In this document: piece after piece, positions 1,860 to 22,231 of the stretch
Position numbering within the stretch: position 1 is the stretch's first letter
Layout: each line of letters opens with the position of its first letter
Virus genome (UHGV): UHGV-1067530
DNA length: 33,600 nt
From: a virus
Direction: 5' to 3' (one strand)
The notes under the pieces: generated by a model
What the model was told of the DNA's origin: nothing
What the model saw: only the letters and a program-made list of their open reading frames with translations
The model's database searches: none
Made by a program: the position numbers and the translations under genes

Positions 1860-2393
1860 CTATAATTGTAGGTTGCATTCTTTACTTACCTCTTCAAGTT
1901 TAACCTCAGAGTCCTTAAGTCGTTTCTTATGAACTCTGAACCTCATTAGTGAGATGATGATACCAGCTAAAGGAACAGCATACAAGTACCAAATATCTTG
2001 TACCTTTGCGGTAATCTGTGTAATTGTCAAATCTTGAGCTGTGTAGCTGATTACTGATACTGCCAGTAACGTTGCTAAGAAGAATGCCAGTCCCATAACA
2101 ATACTTAGGCAGCCTCTGGCATGGTGTTCATGCTTAATGCACTTATTCTTTTCGTCAACAACTCTGTTGTAGTCATTTGCAAAGTCTCTGTAGAAAGCTT
2201 TCAGGTATTCTTGAGTGTAGCCTTCAAAGCAACCTGTGCCATACCAGTAATCACCACCAAAATGTGCGATGATACCAGTATCTCCATTTGGTTTCGTCAC
2301 TCTTAAAGAAGTGTGATGGCGAGTATCCTGAAAATCTATCTTGTATCTTTCTTCGTAAATCATTTTCCAACCCCTCTCAATCGTTTGTTCCAC
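1860..2393 (-). CDS. hypothetical membrane protein (177 aa)
   Basis: Two hydrophobic segments (LSIVMGLAFFLATLLAVSVI and YLYAVPLAGIIISL) read as TM helices; a holin-like role is speculative. Confidence 0.45.
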   Translation of the reverse strand: MEQTIERGWKMIYEERYKIDFQDTRHHTSLRVTKPNGDTGIIAHFGGDYWYGTGCFEGYTQEYLKAFYRDFANDYNRVVDEKNKCIKHEHHARGCLSIVMGLAFFLATLLAVSVISYTAQDLTITQITAKVQDIWYLYAVPLAGIIISLMRFRVHKKRLKDSEVKLEEVSKECNLQL

Positions 2394-4118: not shown

Positions 4119-4404
4119 CGTTAAACTCTCTGACGAAGAAATAGTTGACTTTGTTATTGCCTACCATAAGGTCAAAGCAGGTATTCTCAAAAGGTTTGTT
4201 GTAGGCATCATAGGAAGTGTGTGTATCAGCTACTTGTTTAGTATTGAGCTTTTTACTTGATGGGTTTAAGAGGCCACCATACAGTTTCTTGATAGCCTCT
4301 TCTACAACAGACCAGATAATTTCGTCAGTAATTTCTTCGTACAGGTCAAGTTCACGCTCTAGTGAGAAGTCACAAATAGGGAAAACAACCTGTACTTTAC
4401 TCAT
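4111..4404 (-). CDS. hypothetical acidic protein (97 aa)
   Basis: ORF; Glu/Asp-rich. Confidence 0.45.
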   Translation of the reverse strand: MSKVQVVFPICDFSLERELDLYEEITDEIIWSVVEEAIKKLYGGLLNPSSKKLNTKQVADTHTSYDAYNKPFENTCFDLMVGNNKVNYFFVREFNDE

Positions 4405-4799
4405 TAACGAATAACCTGTGAGACTTGAATTGCTTCAGTTACTGACAAGTCACCTACTTTCTCTTCTTTGATAAAAGTGAAGGTGAGTTCAACAGGTTCT
4501 TGCTCTTCTTGCTCAACTGGAACACCATTAAGCTCATCAAAGATTGACTGAGTTGTCCAGTCTTCTCCACCATCTGGATAGTGGACTGCATAAAGAGGAA
4601 ACTCTAAATTATACCAAGCAAAAACAGGACAACCGTCGGCATCATCTCGGCATCTGTGGAGATATGTGTTTGTACCTTCAAAATGCAAATGAAGATTGCC
4701 ATTCTTCTCAAAGAGAAGAGCATCTTGCAGGTCTAGTTCCTCATTTTCGCTGTAACGACTGACATCAACTTTAACGTGGATATGACTGTTATTATTCAT
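4404..4799 (-). CDS. hypothetical acidic protein (131 aa)
   Basis: ORF; many E/D residues (EQEEQEPVE, DDADG). Confidence 0.5.
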   Translation of the reverse strand: MNNNSHIHVKVDVSRYSENEELDLQDALLFEKNGNLHLHFEGTNTYLHRCRDDADGCPVFAWYNLEFPLYAVHYPDGGEDWTTQSIFDELNGVPVEQEEQEPVELTFTFIKEEKVGDLSVTEAIQVSQVIR

Positions 4800-5200: not shown

Positions 5201-5228
5201 TTAGAAAATAAAAAAGGCTCCCGAAGGA
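5201..5228 (-). terminator. Putative intrinsic terminator after the lysozyme gene
   Basis: Stem GGCTCC/GGAGCC with loop cgaa; on the minus strand it is followed by TTTTTTATTTT. Confidence 0.5.
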
Positions 5229-5241
5229 GCCTATGAAGATA

Positions 5242-5706
5242 TTACTTTGGATATACACTGTCAAGATAAATGTCAGCTTCCATTCTACGTCTGTTTTTCA
5301 GGCCGTTTGAAGTGACTTTCTTACCTTTGACTGTAACCTTGTTCCACCACTGCATAGCTTCTGCACAACCTACCTTATTACCAGCGTTGTGGCGCTTGAT
5401 AAATGTAGAGTCCTGCATAGCTGTGATGCCAATGTTGTATGTTTCACTTACAAGTGCGTCAAACTCATTCTGGGAAGTTGGAACCTTGATGGATTTGTTC
5501 ACTGCTGCAACGAACTTTTCAACATCTGCGAGAAGATACTGTTCAGCTTGTTCAGCCGTAATTTTCATACCCATCTTAACAGGTTTTCCGTCAATACGGA
5601 TTGTACCATACCCGATTGTTGGGATTCCGGCAGAATCTTCGTAAGCCTCTAGCTTAAGACCTTCAAAGAACTTAATAGCTTCTAAACCTTTTCTTGAGAG
5701 TTGCAT
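5242..5706 (-). CDS. Lysozyme / endolysin, T4-lysozyme-like (glycoside hydrolase family 24)
   Basis: N-terminal FEGLKLEAYEDSAGIPTIGYG matches the T4 lysozyme catalytic motif (E...D...T, [21 protein letters not shown]). Confidence 0.8.
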   Translation of the reverse strand: MQLSRKGLEAIKFFEGLKLEAYEDSAGIPTIGYGTIRIDGKPVKMGMKITAEQAEQYLLADVEKFVAAVNKSIKVPTSQNEFDALVSETYNIGITAMQDSTFIKRHNAGNKVGCAEAMQWWNKVTVKGKKVTSNGLKNRRRMEADIYLDSVYPK

Positions 5707-6338
5707 TATGCCTCCCCTGCTGGGTTAACAGTAACTGTTGCCACATTAGATGTTACAGAGCCACCTGCGCCAGTAACTACACAGGTGTAGCTTCCTGAAT
5801 CAGCAGCGGTTGCACCTTCTTTGGTGTAAGTTGCAGTAGTTGCATCGAGGATATCTTCCTCACCTTTCTTCCACTGGTAACCTGTCGCACCTGTTGCCGC
5901 AACATTCAGCGTTAAGGTCTCACCTTCAGTGATTTCTTGATTGGTTGGCTGCTGAGTGATTGCTGGTGGCTTGATAGCATCCTTCAACTTAGCATTCAAC
6001 ATTGAGAACGGCTTAACCATTGCCAGCCATTCACAATAAATTGTATCAACGTCTTTACCATTGATAATTGCATATTGTAAGTCCATGAAGAAGTCAGAAG
6101 TTCTCATTTGAGCACCGATGCTGTAAAGCAACTCATCACTAAATGGGACTTTGTAGTCTGGTTTGTAGTCAAACTCCTCAACTTCTGCAATATCAGCTTC
6201 AGGCCAATACGAACTATAGGTAAGTGGTAAAATAGCCTCTTGATATGTTCTAAAATCATATCTCTTACCAGCTTTTACGTTTGCAATGAAGCCCTTCACA
6301 AACTCTTTGAAGTCTGGGTAAGTCTTTGCTTTAATCAT
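5706..6338 (-). CDS. hypothetical protein with C-terminal Ig-like domain (210 aa)
   Basis: C-terminus (ITQQPTNQEITEGETLTLNVAATGATGYQWKKG...SGSYTCVVTGAGGSVTSNVATVTV) reads as an Ig-like fold; N-terminal ~120 aa is paralogous to the 6335-6706 product. Confidence 0.55.
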   Translation of the reverse strand: MIKAKTYPDFKEFVKGFIANVKAGKRYDFRTYQEAILPLTYSSYWPEADIAEVEEFDYKPDYKVPFSDELLYSIGAQMRTSDFFMDLQYAIINGKDVDTIYCEWLAMVKPFSMLNAKLKDAIKPPAITQQPTNQEITEGETLTLNVAATGATGYQWKKGEEDILDATTATYTKEGATAADSGSYTCVVTGAGGSVTSNVATVTVNPAGEA

Positions 6339-6706
6339 TTCTTTTTAGCCTCTAAATGTGCGTTTAGTCTAAAATAACCTTTGTGATGCGGAGATACATC
6401 ACCAACAACAATACCTTTAACCTTATAGCCTTTACCAATTACATACTGGATATCCATAAGGAATCTTCCAAGACCAACAATATGGAACATTGGATATAAT
6501 AGATTCTCAGAATCTGGAATATTGATTTCAGGTTTGTAGGTGCGTTGTTCGCTTGTCGGTGTAATATCTTCTTCAGGCCATTTACTGAGTCTCCATGTCA
6601 AAGGTGTTGGGATAACATCATTAAGGTTGTACCTTTCACCATTTTGCACGGAATTGATATAGGATTGTAGGAAGCAATAAAAGTCTTTTGCACTCTTAGC
6701 TTTCAT
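6335..6706 (-). CDS. hypothetical protein (123 aa), paralog of the 5706-6338 N-terminal domain
   Basis: Shared motifs WPEEDI/WPEADI, YKP, MDIQYVI/MDLQYAI. Confidence 0.5.
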   Translation of the reverse strand: MKAKSAKDFYCFLQSYINSVQNGERYNLNDVIPTPLTWRLSKWPEEDITPTSEQRTYKPEINIPDSENLLYPMFHIVGLGRFLMDIQYVIGKGYKVKGIVVGDVSPHHKGYFRLNAHLEAKKK

Positions 6707-6753
6707 TAAATATCCTTATAAATAGTTAAAGGGGCATCAGCCCCTATTCACAC

Positions 6754-7344
6754 TTAAGCTTTGGTCTTAAGTAGGTTCTTAAGTTTTTTAAGATTCATGC
6801 TCTCATCAAACTTAAAACCAAATCCATTGACATAATCAATGAACTCGGATTTCTTACTGAGTGACAATGCGTAACTCATATCAAAGTTCTTACTTGTTTC
6901 TGCGTCTGGACTAGAGTTCACATCAAATGAAATTTCTGTAGGCTCTTGCTTACTTTTTCTCATATTATCAATTAACAAACATGTATAGTTTGCTGGATAG
7001 AAGTTTACACTACCATCAACGTAGCTGTACTTATTATTATGGATAAGGTTGGAAAATACCTTAAGGAATGTTTCTGAGTCGTGGCAAACAAGTTTGAATT
7101 GGCTGCTCTCTCCAAGCGCAACTAATGAGTACGGACTTTCACTATCAAAGTCATAGTTTGGATTTGATGCCGTCACTGTTACACGCATCAAGTTATTAGC
7201 AATAGTCTTCTGTTTAAAAGAATTTTGAACATAGTGAAGACCCCTCTCACACTGATTGACTAGCTCTTTAAGTAGGTCATTTGCATATGGTGAGTTAATT
7301 GATACAGAGCCGTCACTATTGTAATTAAAACTTACTGTTAACAT
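6754..7344 (-). CDS. hypothetical protein (196 aa)
   Basis: ORF in early-block context. Confidence 0.5.
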   Translation of the reverse strand: MLTVSFNYNSDGSVSINSPYANDLLKELVNQCERGLHYVQNSFKQKTIANNLMRVTVTASNPNYDFDSESPYSLVALGESSQFKLVCHDSETFLKVFSNLIHNNKYSYVDGSVNFYPANYTCLLIDNMRKSKQEPTEISFDVNSSPDAETSKNFDMSYALSLSKKSEFIDYVNGFGFKFDESMNLKKLKNLLKTKA

Positions 7345-8416: not shown

Positions 8417-9832
8417 ATGAGCGAATTATTTAAACATGCGCACCTTCATGCAGGTCGAACTGAAAATGGTGCTGTAAACCATACTTCATCAATGTCTGCT
8501 CTTGTAGACTTTTACAAAGCTGCTGGTTCAAGCCGTAGCAACGTAGAAATCTTACCAGACCTGTTCTACAAAGCTTTGCGTGAGGATGTTGATGTTGCAG
8601 TTCGTATTTTACTGCATATGCGAGATGTACGAGAAGGTATTGGTGAGCGTAAAGCCTTCAGAACTGTTTTGCTTCAAGCAATTGAAGATAAAGTTTTAGA
8701 GCCTACACAGGTTCTTCGCATTATGGATAAGATTGCAGAACTTGGTCGTTTTGATGACTTCAAAATCTTCGTAGGTACTCGTTTCGAGACAGATGCCTTC
8801 AAACATTTAGAAGCAGCATTACTAGACCCTGCAACAGCAGGTTTGGCAGCCAAGTGGCTACCACGAGTCAAACCACGTCATAAGCAGTTTGTAAAACGTT
8901 TCTGTAAGTTTGCCAACTTGAGTGAGAAAGAGTATCGCACACTGTTGTCTGCGCTCTCTGATACAGTTGAGCAAAAAATCTCTGCTAATGAGTTTGGCAA
9001 GATTGACTACAGTAAGATTCCTTCACTTGCTGCTGCACGTTACCAAAAACTGTTTAACCGCAAAGATGGAGAACGCTACAAAGCTTACATCGAGTCCTTA
9101 TCAAAGGGTGAGACTAAGATTAATGCTGGTGCTGTTTACCCATACGATGTGATTAAGTCTGTTAAGTATGGTAATGCAGATGTTGCTAATGAGCAGTGGA
9201 AAGCACTACCAAACTGGATGGCAGAGGGTGAAAACATTCTCTGTATGTCTGATGTTTCACGTTCAATGTCTTGGGTGAATTTTGGCTCCATTACTACTCT
9301 GGATATTGGTGTATCACTTGCATTGTATGTAGCAGAACGCAATACAGGTTGCTTTAAAAATGAGTTAATGGTTTACTCAACAAACCCTCACTTCATCGAA
9401 CTGAGTGGTGATTTACGAAACCGTCATCGTCAGGTGATGCGGCACGTTGAATATGGCTCAACTAACTTACAAGCAGCTTTTGACCGTATTCTTGAGACAG
9501 GTAAAAGAAATAACTTGACTCAGAAAGATATGCCAAGTAAGCTTATCATCTTCTCAGATATGGAGTTCAATCAGGTTGATGGAGCTAACGGTCGCACAAA
9601 CTTTGAAGCAATCCAGAGTAAGTACAAGAAAGCTGGATACGAAATGCCACAACTGGTATTCTGGTACTTAGCAAACCGTAATGGTACTTGCGAAGTATCT
9701 GTTAAGGATAACGGTGTAGCAATGGTATCTGGTTTCTCTCCAGCCACTTTAAAAGCTCTGCTTGGTGGTGAGAAGTTTGACCCTATCAGCGTAATGCTCA
9801 AAGCAGTAATGATTGACCGTTATATCTGGTAA
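8417..9832 (+). CDS. vWA-domain protein with N-terminal alpha-helical domain; possibly Ro60/TROVE-like (DUF2828-type)
   Basis: MIDAS motif in ILCMSDVSRSMS (DxSxS), downstream YGSTNL (T) and LIIFSDMEF (D) at vWA-typical spacing; N-terminal ~270 aa has no motif I recognise; the TROVE assignment is inference. Confidence 0.55.
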   Translation: MSELFKHAHLHAGRTENGAVNHTSSMSALVDFYKAAGSSRSNVEILPDLFYKALREDVDVAVRILLHMRDVREGIGERKAFRTVLLQAIEDKVLEPTQVLRIMDKIAELGRFDDFKIFVGTRFETDAFKHLEAALLDPATAGLAAKWLPRVKPRHKQFVKRFCKFANLSEKEYRTLLSALSDTVEQKISANEFGKIDYSKIPSLAAARYQKLFNRKDGERYKAYIESLSKGETKINAGAVYPYDVIKSVKYGNADVANEQWKALPNWMAEGENILCMSDVSRSMSWVNFGSITTLDIGVSLALYVAERNTGCFKNELMVYSTNPHFIELSGDLRNRHRQVMRHVEYGSTNLQAAFDRILETGKRNNLTQKDMPSKLIIFSDMEFNQVDGANGRTNFEAIQSKYKKAGYEMPQLVFWYLANRNGTCEVSVKDNGVAMVSGFSPATLKALLGGEKFDPISVMLKAVMIDRYIW

Positions 9833-9997: not shown

Positions 9998-10074
9998 CTC
10001 TGTTTAGCTCAGCTTGGTAGAGCGTTCCGTTTGGGGCGGTAAGGCCGGAGGTTCAAGTCCTCCAACAGAGACCA
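9998..10074 (+). tRNA. tRNA-Pro (anticodon TGG)
   Basis: Acceptor CTCTGTT/AACAGAG, D-arm GCTC/GAGC, anticodon loop TTTGGGG, T-arm GGAGG-TTCAAGT-CCTCC, encoded CCA. Confidence 0.8.
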
Positions 10075-20713: not shown

Positions 20714-21091
20714 ATGGCATATCAAGGTTTTACTAAGTTAGGTAACAGAGAACCTCTGAATGATATCATTCTTTGGGAACAGGTTACCCCAACAGGTCAC
20801 TCTCGCAAAGAGTACACTCCGGTTGCTTCAACAGAATACCGTGTAGGTGAAGTTCTGAAAGCAGATGGTACTAAGGTTACAGCAGGGCAAGAAGCTCAGG
20901 CTGATTCAGTATGTATCGTTAACTTTTATGCAGACCTGCAACTGTCTTATCATGGTCAGTTGAAAGTTGTTGGTATCCACCGTGATGCAGAACTGAAAGA
21001 CATGCTGACTCTTGAAGCAAGCGTTGACGCTGCCGCAGTCAAGAAAGCTCTGGCTGCCAAAGGTATTGATTTCGTACCAACTGGCCTGTAA
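20714..21091 (+). CDS. Head decoration protein (lambda gpD-like)
   Basis: 125-aa protein between protease and major capsid, the gpD position. Confidence 0.55.
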   Translation: MAYQGFTKLGNREPLNDIILWEQVTPTGHSRKEYTPVASTEYRVGEVLKADGTKVTAGQEAQADSVCIVNFYADLQLSYHGQLKVVGIHRDAELKDMLTLEASVDAAAVKKALAAKGIDFVPTGL

Positions 21092-21124: not shown

Positions 21125-22231
21125 ATGTTGACTAATTCTGAAAAAAGCAGATTTTTCCTTGCTGACCTGACTGGTGAAGTCCAGTCTATCCCAAATACTT
21201 ATGGGTATATTTCCAACTTAGGTCTGTTCCGTTCAGCACCAATCACCCAAACTACTTTCCTGATGGACTTGACTGATTGGGATGTTAGCTTGCTTGATGC
21301 GGTAGACCGTGATAGCCGTAAAGCAGAGACTAGCGCACCTGAGCGTGTTCGTCAAATCAGCTTCCCAATGATGTACTTCAAAGAAGTTGAAAGCATTACT
21401 CCTGATGAGATTCAGGGTGTACGTCAGCCAGGCACTGCAAATGAACTGACTACTGAAGCTGTAGTACGTGCTAAGAAGCTGATGAAGATTCGTACCAAGT
21501 TCGATATTACTCGTGAGTTCCTGTTTATGCAAGCTCTGAAGGGTAAAGTTGTTGATGCTCGTGGTACTCTGTATGCTGACCTGTACAAGCAGTTCGACGT
21601 TGAGAAGAAGACTATTTACTTCGACCTTGACAACCCTAATGCTGACATCGACGCTTCTATTGAAGAACTGCGTATGCACATGGAAGACGAAGCTAAGACT
21701 GGCACTGTAATCAACGGTGAAGAAATCCACGTAGTTGTTGACCGTGTATTCTTCAGCAAACTGGTTAAGCATCCTAAGATTCGTGACGCTTATCTTGCAC
21801 AGCAGACTCCACTGGCTTGGCAACAGATTACTGGTTCTCTGAGAACTGGTGGTGCTGACGGCGTTCAGGCTCATATGAACACTTTCTACTACGGTGGTGT
21901 TAAGTTTGTCCAGTACAACGGTAAGTTCAAAGACAAGCGCGGTAAGGTTCACACTCTGGTGAGTATTGACAGCGTAGCAGACACTGTTGGTGTTGGTCAT
22001 GCCTTCCCTAACGTATCTATGCTGGGTGAAGCTAACAACATCTTCGAAGTGGCATATGGTCCATGTCCTAAGATGGGTTACGCAAATACACTTGGTCAGG
22101 AACTGTACGTATTTGAATACGAAAAAGACCGTGACGAAGGTATTGACTTCGAAGCTCACTCTTACATGCTGCCATACTGTACTCGTCCTCAGTTGCTGGT
22201 AGATGTTCGCGCTGACGCTCAAGGTGGCTAA
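21125..22231 (+). CDS. Major capsid protein (lambda gpE-like family)
   Basis: 368 aa, position after protease/decoration; C-terminal region resembles lambda E; codon usage suggests high expression. Confidence 0.7.
   Translation: MLTNSEKSRFFLADLTGEVQSIPNTYGYISNLGLFRSAPITQTTFLMDLTDWDVSLLDAVDRDSRKAETSAPERVRQISFPMMYFKEVESITPDEIQGVRQPGTANELTTEAVVRAKKLMKIRTKFDITREFLFMQALKGKVVDARGTLYADLYKQFDVEKKTIYFDLDNPNADIDASIEELRMHMEDEAKTGTVINGEEIHVVVDRVFFSKLVKHPKIRDAYLAQQTPLAWQQITGSLRTGGADGVQAHMNTFYYGGVKFVQYNGKFKDKRGKVHTLVSIDSVADTVGVGHAFPNVSMLGEANNIFEVAYGPCPKMGYANTLGQELYVFEYEKDRDEGIDFEAHSYMLPYCTRPQLLVDVRADAQGG

Follow-up and report, generated by a model that had tools for sequence, protein, structure and literature searches.

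What are two related genes of a Felix O1-like phage doing directly beside its lysozyme gene, when only one of them carries an Ig-like domain? The question arises from a window of 33,600 nucleotides of the virus genome UHGV-1067530, which shares 99.9% identity with Salmonella virus VSe11 (Felixounavirus). An earlier note on this DNA had described a lysozyme "followed by" two tandem paralogs of unknown function. All three open reading frames are present as back-to-back genes on the minus strand, at 6706-6335 (123 aa), 6338-5706 (210 aa) and 5706-5242 (154 aa). The adjacency is as described, whereas the order of transcription is paralog, Ig-bearing gene, lysin. We consider it very probable that the locus combines a canonical endolysin, a Hoc-like hexamer decoration protein (Hex-Dec) and a derived paralog made of the capsid-binding domain (CapBD) only, as one conserved unit. 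Most of this is known biology, with the role of the short CapBD copy as the one modest exception. The features are as follows.

5205..5232, minus strand: intrinsic terminator directly 3' of the endolysin gene, with a GC stem, UUCG loop and U-tract (terminator scan).
5242..5706, minus strand: soluble GH24 T4-lysozyme-like endolysin, 154 aa (Pfam, PHROG and PDB matches).
5706..5972, minus strand: Ig-like display domain of Hex-Dec, residues 123-210 and the stop codon (Pfam).
5973..6338, minus strand: CapBD of Hex-Dec, residues 1-122 (alignment with 9ncf_S and 9c2d_S).
6335..6338, minus strand: ATGA overlap of 4 bp between the paralog stop codon and the Hex-Dec start codon (ORF coordinates).
6335..6706, minus strand: CapBD-only paralog, 123 aa, 14 kDa (BLASTP, phmmer and AF2 fold match).
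6713-6717, minus strand: ribosome-binding site AAGGA of the paralog, downstream of the hairpin in the next line.
6730..6745, minus strand: hairpin AGGGGC-TGAT-GCCCCT between the 196-aa ORF and the paralog (sequence).
6754..7344, minus strand: 196-aa ORF of PHROG 4034, the syntenic upstream neighbor of the trio, given as context (PHROG match).

The head genes are about 15 kb away from the trio and are encoded on the other strand. Its order of paralog, Hex-Dec and lysin is invariant across 29 related loci, a divergent metagenomic phage among them, and the paralog and Hex-Dec genes show a short stop/start overlap (mostly 4 bp) or direct abutment in all 29 of the 29 related loci that hold both. 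Judging from the ATGA sequence, the two genes could be translationally coupled. The three genes would form a conserved unit of Felix O1-like phages (Ounavirinae), bounded by a conserved hairpin and a strong intrinsic terminator. The terminator has a fold energy of -12.9 kcal/mol (z -3.9), and its counterpart carries a terminator annotation in phage KhF3. The hairpin (-13.5 kcal/mol, z -2.7) has a weak T-tract, is kept in five aligned relatives, including ones with a pseudogenized paralog, and is an annotated terminator in KhF3 as well. We infer the promoter and operon structure of the trio. No promoter for the three-gene unit was identified; CTATTTATAAG, which lies upstream of the paralog, was rejected as a late-promoter motif, as it is not enriched in the window (3 matches against 1.08 expected, a number reached in 10 of 100 shuffles). 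A T4-like inh-hoc pairing, raised by a 'faint' precomputed Pfam Phage_Inh_N tag on a metagenomic homolog of the 196-aa ORF, was likewise rejected, and hmmscan of four orthologs of this ORF returned no Phage_Inh_N match at E values up to 10.

The identity of the first protein is clear. As the earlier note had proposed, the 154-aa product is a GH24 endolysin, matching Phage_lysozyme (PF00959, E 1e-40, 139 bits against a gathering cut-off of 22.3) and PHROG 7 endolysin (8e-58), and differing from the LysF1 structure (PDB 7m5i) by 5 substitutions over 154 aligned residues (E 3e-98). The alignment with LysF1 begins at residue 1, and the catalytic triad Glu-X8-Asp-X5-Thr (E15, D24, T30) is the same. 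Neither the hydrophobicity scan nor the LysF1 alignment revealed an N-terminal hydrophobic or SAR segment. LysF1 itself has no N-terminal extension and no SAR domain, and its triad, structure and biochemically demonstrated muralytic activity are published (PMC8228626). By sequence, the protein is therefore a LysO1/LysF1-type endolysin, orthologous to Felix O1 gp35/LysO1 and FAHEc1 LysF1. Like LysF1 of FAHEc1 (7M5I), Felix O1 LysO1, P22 gp19 and T4 lysozyme, it consists of a single globular GH24 domain, and nothing material differs. Its median dN/dS is 0.068. A canonical T4L-type endolysin of this kind would accumulate in the cytoplasm and need a holin encoded elsewhere, as in T4.

The Ig-bearing gene, for which the earlier note had given no function, likewise has a solved counterpart. 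Its 210-aa, 23-kDa product matches Bas63 Hex-Dec (9ncf_S, E 1e-213) and Sf14 gp20 (9c2d_S, E 3e-151), with CapBD residues 1-122 aligning to both structures at very high identity, and we conclude from these matches that it is the Hoc-like hexamer decoration protein Hex-Dec/gp20. Essentially nothing speaks against either this or the lysin identity. The note had allowed that the paralogs might prove to be ordinary structural proteins, and this is so for one of them, since the Ig-bearing gene is Hex-Dec. Cryo-EM of Bas63 and Sf14 places Hex-Dec/gp20 at the hexamer centers of the virion (PMC12609058, PMC11821841), and MS detected gp36, its Felix O1 ortholog, among the virion proteins (PMC3185647). 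The database label 'tail protein' on this gene is wrong, as it encodes a capsid decoration protein; the Bas63 paper (2025) had made the same observation. In both Bas63 and Sf14, the orthologous protein consists of a CapBD followed by Ig repeats, and its gene lies just upstream of the endolysin, outside the structural module.

The C-terminal part of the protein holds the one Ig-like domain that had been read from the sequence, at residues 124-205, where Ig_3 (5e-10), Ig_2 (7e-9) and I-set (1e-8) all score above their gathering thresholds. Relatives carry one to four Ig repeats (210, 294, 377 or 461 aa), Bas63 having four of them and Sf14 three. The repeat kept in the window resembles the terminal rather than the first repeat of Bas63 Hex-Dec, being identical at 78 of 88 positions to the fourth (terminal) repeat and at 62 of 89 to the first. 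From the published structures, the 120-residue N-terminal domain would plug, as a monomer, the center of the 60 pentamer-proximal hexamers of a T=9 capsid and point its Ig-like domains outward, of which the phage in the window would display only one.

Hex-Dec is anchored to Asp221 of the MCP by Arg79 and Arg107 (PMC12609058, PMC11821841), and in Sf14 a shift of Asp221 on the three-fold hexamers keeps gp20 off them (PMC11821841). The window conserves MCP Asp221 and Hex-Dec Arg79. However, position 107, an anchoring arginine in Bas63 and Sf14, is Met, a substitution (R107M) unique to this phage among 33 loci and 43 database clusters. Because of the loss of this anchor, capsid occupancy by Hex-Dec is not guaranteed in the phage of the window. 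The CapBD as a whole is strongly constrained across relatives, with a median dN/dS of 0.044.

The arrangement resembles that of T4 Hoc and T5 pb10, which also place one monomer at each hexamer center, combine a small capsid-binding domain with Ig-like display domains, are non-essential and have a proposed role in adhesion or aggregation. In contrast, their capsid-binding domains share no sequence homology with that of Hex-Dec. The domains also come in the opposite order to those of Hoc, and the CapBD has a topology of its own with pseudo-C2 lobes (PMC12609058). PHROGs labeled 'Hoc-like head decoration' were matched through the Ig domain only. Because the CapBD is N-terminal and matches Ounavirinae proteins only, Hex-Dec is an analogue rather than a member of the T4 Hoc family.

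The short gene is a second copy of this domain. Its orthologs are Felix O1 gp37, Bas63 bas63_0125 and Sf14 gp21, which belong to PHROG 4463 ('unknown function'). The two genes immediately upstream of the lysin are indeed tandem paralogs, with 38% identity over 101 aa (BLASTP, E 7e-17), and each protein matches the PHROG of the other (3995 and 4463). The homology and structure search of the shared N-terminal domain, which the earlier note had suggested, identified it in both proteins as the CapBD of 9ncf_S and 9c2d_S. For the short copy, phmmer matched 9ncf_S at 1.2e-11, and its AF2 model, which is of moderate confidence (pLDDT 68, pTM 0.70), matched only 9ncf_S and 9c2d_S in the PDB (TM 0.64, E 2e-5). 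An HMM search for distant homologs, run exhaustively against 1.84 billion representative proteins, gave 12 hits, all of Ounavirinae type, and neither these proteins nor the PDB yielded a homology or fold match of the paralog outside CapBDs. The protein contains no Pfam domain and stops after the CapBD, with no display domain.

The two copies differ at the anchor. The paralog shares only the CapBD with Bas63 and Sf14 Hex-Dec (~33-38% identity), and it has neither anchoring arginine: R79 is replaced by an invariant Gly and R107 by His or Gln. Across the two families, 20 columns hold one and the same invariant residue, while nine, including R79 to G, are invariant within each family yet different between them. 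Per-site conservation is correlated between the families (rho 0.40). Net charge was considered as a clue to capsid binding, but it is inconsistent within either family among the five sequences compared and is uninformative. We found no paper that discusses the 123-aa paralog, and the Bas63 and Sf14 structural papers leave it unmentioned, though both phages encode it.

The sequences of relatives also bear on how the pair arose. The Kolesnikvirus Fifi318 genes gp117-gp116-gp115 have the same synteny, with a homolog of the 196-aa ORF (gp117) placed before a single-copy CapBD decoration gene, whose fold is recognizable, and the lysin. In this genus (Fifi318, and the BIG2 protein of phiEa104) the CapBD is encoded only once, the short paralog is missing, and the display domain is of Big_2 type instead of I-set Ig. 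The duplication is therefore specific to the Felixounavirus/Mooglevirus lineage. The single-copy relatives (Kolesnikvirus and metagenomic Ounavirinae-like phages) already possess a C-terminal extension, with an Ig- or Big_2-type display domain in four of five, and four of the five resemble the Hex-Dec copy more than the short one, the higher score going to the Hex-Dec HMM. Because the outgroups have one copy with a display domain, these comparisons suggest that the short gene is the derived copy and that the Ig domain was not gained, so that the direction of change is probably the reverse of the one the earlier note had assumed. T4 and T5 are not known to have a CapBD-only paralog.

Expression data from Felix O1 place the short copy alongside its partner. 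Both ORF36 and ORF37 reach their maximum at 60 min (PMC3185647, Table 3), so the two paralogs are not early genes; the note had placed the lysin in a leftward block of otherwise early-looking small genes. The short protein has not been reported in virions. gp37 is missing from the Felix O1 virion protein lists obtained by MS (PMC3185647), which apply a 25% coverage cut-off that a 14-kDa minor component could escape, and the paralog is missing from the Sf14 table of virion proteins (PMC11821841). The capsid maps of Bas63 and Sf14 show no density on hexamers other than those that Hex-Dec occupies (PMC12609058, PMC11821841), although icosahedral averaging could blur a monomer on a three-fold axis.

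Together, we infer that the paralog is most likely an accessory modulator of capsid assembly or decoration. It arose by tandem duplication, comprises just the capsid-binding domain, is the derived and faster-evolving copy, and has kept the fold while fixing different residues at both anchoring-arginine positions. It is made late with Hex-Dec, is not retained in the virion in any amount detected to date, and would use the CapBD fold transiently in head assembly or decoration rather than form a second permanent decoration. In the version that we tentatively put forward, and for which other possibilities have to be kept in mind, it is a dispensable late accessory factor that engages the MCP hexamer or Hex-Dec transiently and modulates where or when Hex-Dec binds. 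Against this version, Hex-Dec is intact in two of three examined genomes that lost the paralog and so shows no obvious dependence on it. Another version, which we regard as unlikely, makes it a 'bald' CapBD partner or antagonist that caps sites Hex-Dec cannot use, or that competes with or chaperones Hex-Dec and thereby sets the number of Ig fibers displayed by each head. Such capping would take place on the procapsid or on the 20 three-fold hexamers.

If the 'bald' version were true, a phage would be tuning its capsid decoration via a truncated paralog, a mechanism with no earlier description. Nearly all Felixounavirus and Mooglevirus genomes carry this constrained, late-expressed CapBD copy with neither a display domain nor the known anchors, and the pair would be a clean case of decoration-protein evolution after duplication. 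Because Felix O1-type phages serve as display scaffolds and in the biocontrol of Salmonella and E. coli, any effect of the paralog on Hex-Dec loading would matter for display engineering.

Among the rival explanations, the one that survives best, though it is still rather unlikely, holds that the paralog has a function unrelated to the capsid and has merely retained the ancestral fold, for example as a decoy or inhibitor directed against a host defense that senses the capsid or its decoration, or in host takeover. Consistent with this, the paralog evolves ~2.7x faster than the Hex-Dec CapBD while still constrained, is absent from virions (PMC3185647, PMC12609058, PMC11821841) and has been lost in one lineage, as is typical of conditionally useful genes; the net charge of two paralog sequences compared also differs, at +3.8 and -2.4. 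However, its only homology and fold matches are to CapBDs, and a head-related role is favored by a gene that is strictly linked to Hex-Dec, overlaps it and is expressed late together with it. The PhageMaP text names gp124, not gp125.

A decidedly less probable rival is that the paralog is a second, permanent 'bald' decoration on capsomers free of Hex-Dec, such as the 20 three-fold hexamers, or a competitor for the 60 sites. The geometry of Asp221 differs on true three-fold axes, and competition would set the number of Ig fibers per head. In favor of this reading are the retained fold, late expression from a gene overlapping the Hex-Dec start (PMC3185647), the exclusion of Sf14 gp20 from the three-fold hexamers by the shifted Asp221 (PMC11821841), and anchor positions that hold fixed alternative residues with no drift, as expected of a re-targeted binding surface. 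Yet Bas63 and Sf14 encode the paralog and their maps have no such density (PMC12609058, PMC11821841), the protein appears neither in the MS lists of Felix O1 nor in the Sf14 virion table (PMC3185647, PMC11821841), and the gene can be lost without loss of viability. Namely, the paralog is a pseudogene in ~19 of 253 relatives, with a remnant common to the viable isolates Z31, vB_CECAV_041 and EcF-vB.

These pseudogenes, together with the lack of a Pfam family or known function, are also what could be said for the paralog being a functionless remnant of tandem duplication heading for loss. The selection analysis largely refutes this very improbable reading. The gene is intact in ~233 of 253 relatives, and it keeps a length of 122-124 aa and an intact frame in ~233 records and 51 database clusters. 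Its median dN/dS of 0.12, at dS of up to ~1-1.8, indicates purifying selection; 43 alignment columns are invariant among 26 distinct paralog sequences, and it is retained even in a phage so divergent that its copy forms a separate 50%-identity cluster.

Finally, the lysis-system reading implied by the earlier note, in which both paralogs act as holin, antiholin or lysin regulator, has the lowest probability of all and is already contradicted: its sole support is adjacency to the endolysin, conserved in the three Ounavirinae genera examined and in metagenomic relatives, but neither paralog has a transmembrane segment, one is a solved capsid protein and the other has the same fold, and the spanins, which lie ~14 kb from the endolysin in Bas63, are missing from the window.

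The note was right that no holin lies beside the lysin. The hydrophobicity scan, which served as the transmembrane check it had proposed, found no transmembrane ORF adjoining the lysin among all ORFs of at least 35 aa, and the nearest real membrane ORF is the one at 1860-2393. The product of this ORF, a homolog of Bas63 gp116, is a candidate holin, as are gp79, gp116, gp118, gp119 and gp131 of Felix O1. The adjacent holin and spanins of a holin-endolysin cassette are thus not found here. An endolysin with no adjacent holin is, however, a published Felix O1-like trait (PMC3185647, PMC6486253, PMC4319497, PMC4837284), with the endolysin stated to stand alone in Felix O1, Meda, Moogle and UAB_Phi87. 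Standing without a holin is documented for the lysin of these phages and is no peculiarity of the window. Similar to the dispersed lysis genes of T4 (e, t and rz/rz1 at separate loci), the endolysin has neither a holin nor a spanin as neighbor. No significant match to the Bas63 spanins, small membrane protein or rIIA, and no homolog of T4 t, was seen in the window. Two further candidates for lysis genes were considered. Fifi318 gp112, labeled a 'putative holin' in Kolesnikvirus, lacks a hydrophobic segment and was rejected; the window holds no homolog of gp112 or of the 2-TM gp113. The gene at 4404-4799 was rejected as a second lysin; its homolog is labeled 'D-alanyl-D-alanine carboxypeptidase' in some relatives, without Pfam support, and we treat this label as a propagated mis-annotation.

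The lysozyme gene and the two tandem paralogs that precede it lie on the minus strand, about 15 kb from the capsid gene, which is on the opposite strand. They are transcribed in the order short paralog, Hex-Dec (the Hoc-like hexamer decoration protein of Felix O1-type phages) and endolysin. The relevant features are:

6745-6730, minus strand: conserved hairpin between a 196-aa ORF and the short paralog (-13.5 kcal/mol, poor U-tract)
6706-6335, minus strand: short paralog ORF, 123 aa
6338-5706, minus strand: Hex-Dec ORF, 210 aa, sharing 4 bases (ATGA) with the short-paralog ORF
5706-5242, minus strand: endolysin ORF, 154 aa, with a one-base overlap with the Hex-Dec ORF
5232-5205, minus strand: strong intrinsic terminator directly after the lysin (-12.9 kcal/mol, z -3.9)
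20714-21091, plus strand: beta-tulip Dec gene
21125-22231: major capsid protein (MCP) gene

This region shares 99.9% identity with Salmonella viruses VSe11 and VSe102 and 90-96% with about 200 further Felixounavirus genomes, Felix O1 included; the remainder of the window is taken up by a tRNA array and by the module for head and tail. An earlier note, made from sequence alone, had described a GH24 lysozyme and two paralogs here, one of them Ig-bearing. ORF calls, Pfam, PHROG and BLASTP confirmed that observation as written, as did the paralogy of the two proteins and the lack of a membrane ORF beside the lysin. Its interpretation is supported in part only: the missing holin stands, the Ig-bearing gene is not of unknown function, the history proposed for it is probably the reverse, and the finding is largely covered by existing literature. 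With high confidence, two of the three gene functions are known. The 125-aa product of 20714-21091, just upstream of the MCP gene, is named 'tail protease' by PHROG 4146; its position and the Bas63 paper identify it as Dec, the trimeric beta-tulip decoration protein of the capsid, and the PHROG name is a mis-annotation.

The 210-aa protein has one Ig-like domain at residues 124-205 (Ig_3, Ig_2 and I-set, all over the Pfam threshold) and matches chain S of the capsids of two related Ounavirinae phages, Bas63 (9ncf, E 1e-213) and Sf14 (9c2d, E 3e-151). By homology it is the solved capsid protein called Hex-Dec in Bas63 and gp20 in Sf14, so its function is known, contrary to the earlier note. Sf14 gp20 is held to capsid-protein Asp221 by Arg79 and Arg107, flexible Ig-like domains come after the capsid-binding part, and both capsid papers liken the function to that of T4 Hoc (PMC12609058, PMC11821841). 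In purified Felix O1 virions the ortholog gp36 was detected (44% coverage), and expression of ORF36 is highest late in the infection (PMC3185647). The 'tail protein' label in databases is wrong, a point made in the Bas63 paper too. In the PhageMaP screen, the Hex-Dec gene of Bas63 (gp124) was of greater importance on E. coli S17-1 compared with three further strains.

Relatives carry 1, 2, 3 or 4 Ig repeats (210/211, 294/298, 377 and 461 aa), a variation already published, and the window Hex-Dec is the minimal, one-repeat form. Its repeat (5706-5972) is identical to the fourth, terminal repeat of Bas63 Hex-Dec at 78 of 88 positions and to the first at 62 of 89. Given the higher identity to the terminal repeat, one-repeat variants seem to have retained the last repeat, fused to the junction of repeat 1 with the N-terminal domain that binds the capsid (CapBD, residues 1-122). 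This pattern fits loss of internal repeats through recombination between repeat units; the Bas63 paper speaks of a conserved 'repeat 1'. Codon 107 (6018-6020) encodes Met, where the remaining 31 loci and 42 of 43 database clusters have Arg. Met107 is limited to this phage (the VSe11 lineage), MCP Asp221 is unaltered, and R107M may weaken capsid decoration in this phage.

The trio's one unexplained element is the short paralog, a narrow, conserved and undescribed member of the Hex-Dec CapBD family. It is a paralog of the 210-aa protein (BLASTP, 38% identity over 101 residues, E 7e-17), belongs to PHROG 4463 ('unknown function') and has as orthologs Felix O1 gp37, Bas63 bas63_0125 and Sf14 gp21. 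Residues 2-118 align to the CapBD of 9ncf_S and 9c2d_S (E about 1e-11). The same chains are the sole PDB matches of its AlphaFold2 model (pLDDT 68, pTM 0.70; TM 0.64, E 2e-5), and its BFVD matches are Ounavirinae CapBD proteins only. The family is tiny: searching 1.84 billion representatives exhaustively by HMM returned 12 matches. The Bas63 and Sf14 capsid papers mention neither this gene nor the word 'paralog'.

In more distant relatives, namely Kolesnikvirus (e.g. Erwinia phage Fifi318) and Ounavirinae-like metagenomic contigs, the CapBD gene is single-copy and lies between a homolog of the 196-aa ORF, upstream, and the lysozyme, directly downstream. The protein ends in a Big_2 domain, an Ig domain or a tail rich in Lys and Ser, and 4 of 5 single-copy outgroups score clearly better with the Hex-Dec-CapBD HMM than with the paralog HMM. 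The parsimonious history would thus run opposite to the earlier proposal that one copy had gained an Ig-like domain: a gene already bearing a display domain was probably duplicated in tandem in the Felixounavirus/Mooglevirus lineage, after which the upstream copy would have shed its display domain and evolved at a higher rate. Within the family the display module has been exchanged: Felixounavirus and Mooglevirus carry I-set Ig repeats, Kolesnikvirus has Big_2, and one metagenomic relative has the Lys/Ser-rich tail. The CapBD gene is always directly upstream of the lysozyme (Fifi318 locus L050, 1880-4361; relatives' loci L040-L043).

Per-site conservation is correlated between the two families (Spearman 0.40, p 5e-6). 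In 20 columns both families are invariant for the same residue, WPExDI, LLY, FxMDxQY and LNAxL among them; in 9 each family is invariant for a different residue, including the Arg79 column and its neighbour. The Arg79 column is Gly in every short paralog and the Arg107 column is His or Gln; therefore, neither published salt bridge is possible. The segments holding these former anchor positions are among the most conserved parts of the short paralog, which suggests, at the level of sequence, a surface that was retargeted and is not decaying.

In Felix O1, ORF37 peaks at 60 min, as do ORF36 and the genes for tail and baseplate (PMC3185647, Table 3). Good Shine-Dalgarno sequences precede both genes upstream of the lysin, and the 6745-6730 hairpin is annotated as a terminator in phage KhF3. 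From the terminator, the hairpin and the Felix O1 RT-PCR timing we infer that the trio is a discrete late unit. No promoter of the trio was identified, a candidate motif showing no enrichment. Within the lysin 3' end lies a sigma-70-like promoter (5236-5264, minus strand; TTGACA, 17 nt, TATCTT; 10/12 matches) whose -10 element stops 4 nt short of the terminator hairpin; from within the terminator's 5' arm, this promoter could start transcription anew into the downstream block (5190 leftward).

The kept fold, the replaced anchors, gene overlap and late co-expression with Hex-Dec, absence from the virion and dispensability lead us to propose, tentatively, that the short paralog would serve head assembly or decoration as a transient accessory factor, engaging capsid-protein hexamers or Hex-Dec. 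We rank below this a new function without relation to the capsid, which is unlikely; the kept CapBD fold and the pairing with Hex-Dec speak against it. Lower again, and rather improbable, is a second permanent decoration protein. The shared fold might recommend it, but gp37 is not in the Felix O1 virion protein lists (PMC3185647). Bas63 and Sf14 both encode the short paralog, and their capsid maps have no reported density on hexamers beyond those with Hex-Dec/gp20 (PMC12609058, PMC11821841).

A dead gene is very improbable beside an accessory factor. The full-length gene is found in 233 of 253 related phage records, and database clusters from complete genes are all 122-124 aa. Its median pairwise dN/dS of 0.12 compares with 0.044 in the Hex-Dec CapBD and 0.068 in the lysin. 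In 29/29 related loci with these genes the order is paralog, Hex-Dec, lysin, the first two overlapping or abutting, and this arrangement recurs in a divergent 87-kb metagenomic phage. Judged by these measures, the short paralog is evidently a real gene under constraint. An intact copy is missing from about 19 of the 253 records, and the three genomes examined (Z31, vB_CECAV_041 and EcF-vB) have a common pseudogene remnant that has lost its start codon and contains frameshifts and a ~220 bp internal deletion. This common remnant points to one ancestral loss, in a lineage that still gives viable isolates. In Shigella phage Z31 (locus L005, 2310-3070) Hex-Dec is itself split into 134 aa and 55 aa, the product being essentially CapBD only; a sequencing error is possible.

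A lysis role, for which one might cite the neighbouring lysin and against which the CapBD fold stands, is the least probable reading and also ranks below an accessory factor. The 154-aa protein is a Phage_lysozyme/GH24 member (Pfam E 1e-40; PHROG 7 'endolysin') with 5 differences over 154 aligned residues from LysF1 of phage FAHEc1 (PDB 7m5i), a monomeric T4L-like muramidase that has the triad Glu15/Asp24/Thr30 and lacks a signal-arrest-release helix (PMC8228626). Near-identity to LysF1 and the same triad, all found in the window's translation, indicate a canonical endolysin requiring a holin. A hydrophobicity scan of every window ORF of at least 35 aa found no membrane ORF adjoining the lysin, bearing out the earlier claim. 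The absence of a neighbouring holin is already documented for Felix O1-like phages, among them Meda (PMC6486253), Moogle (PMC4319497) and UAB_Phi87 (PMC4837284). In Bas63, spanin annotations lie ~14 kb from the lysin, with no holin annotation within the 38 kb examined; the window holds no homologs of these spanins. In Fifi318, gp112, annotated 'putative holin', has no hydrophobic segment, and its 54-aa neighbour gp113 has two.

A candidate holin, on sequence features, is the 177-aa product of 1860-2393 (minus strand; PHROG 4343, no Pfam), whose C-terminal half has hydrophobic segments and whose C-terminus is charged. Its positional counterpart, bas63_0116, is conditionally important on E. coli S17-1 in PhageMaP, where a tie to lysis is speculative; the product is not on the Whichard et al. 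list of Felix O1 holin candidates. We rejected 4404-4799 (minus strand) as a 'D-alanyl-D-alanine carboxypeptidase', the name given to homologs in several GenBank records (e.g. in phage adrianh): Pfam yielded nothing for it at E up to 0.1, and the label looks like a propagated pVOG mis-annotation. Facing the leftward block, a 471-aa protein (8417-9832, plus strand; PHROG 850 'RNA-binding protein') is encoded next to the tRNA array, which starts near 10000. At the corresponding position, related contigs encode proteins with DUF2828/DUF7788. The gene of the 471-aa protein adjoins a DUF5681 gene, an arrangement kept across the examined Ounavirinae-like contigs. Its location by the tRNA cluster may have functional meaning.
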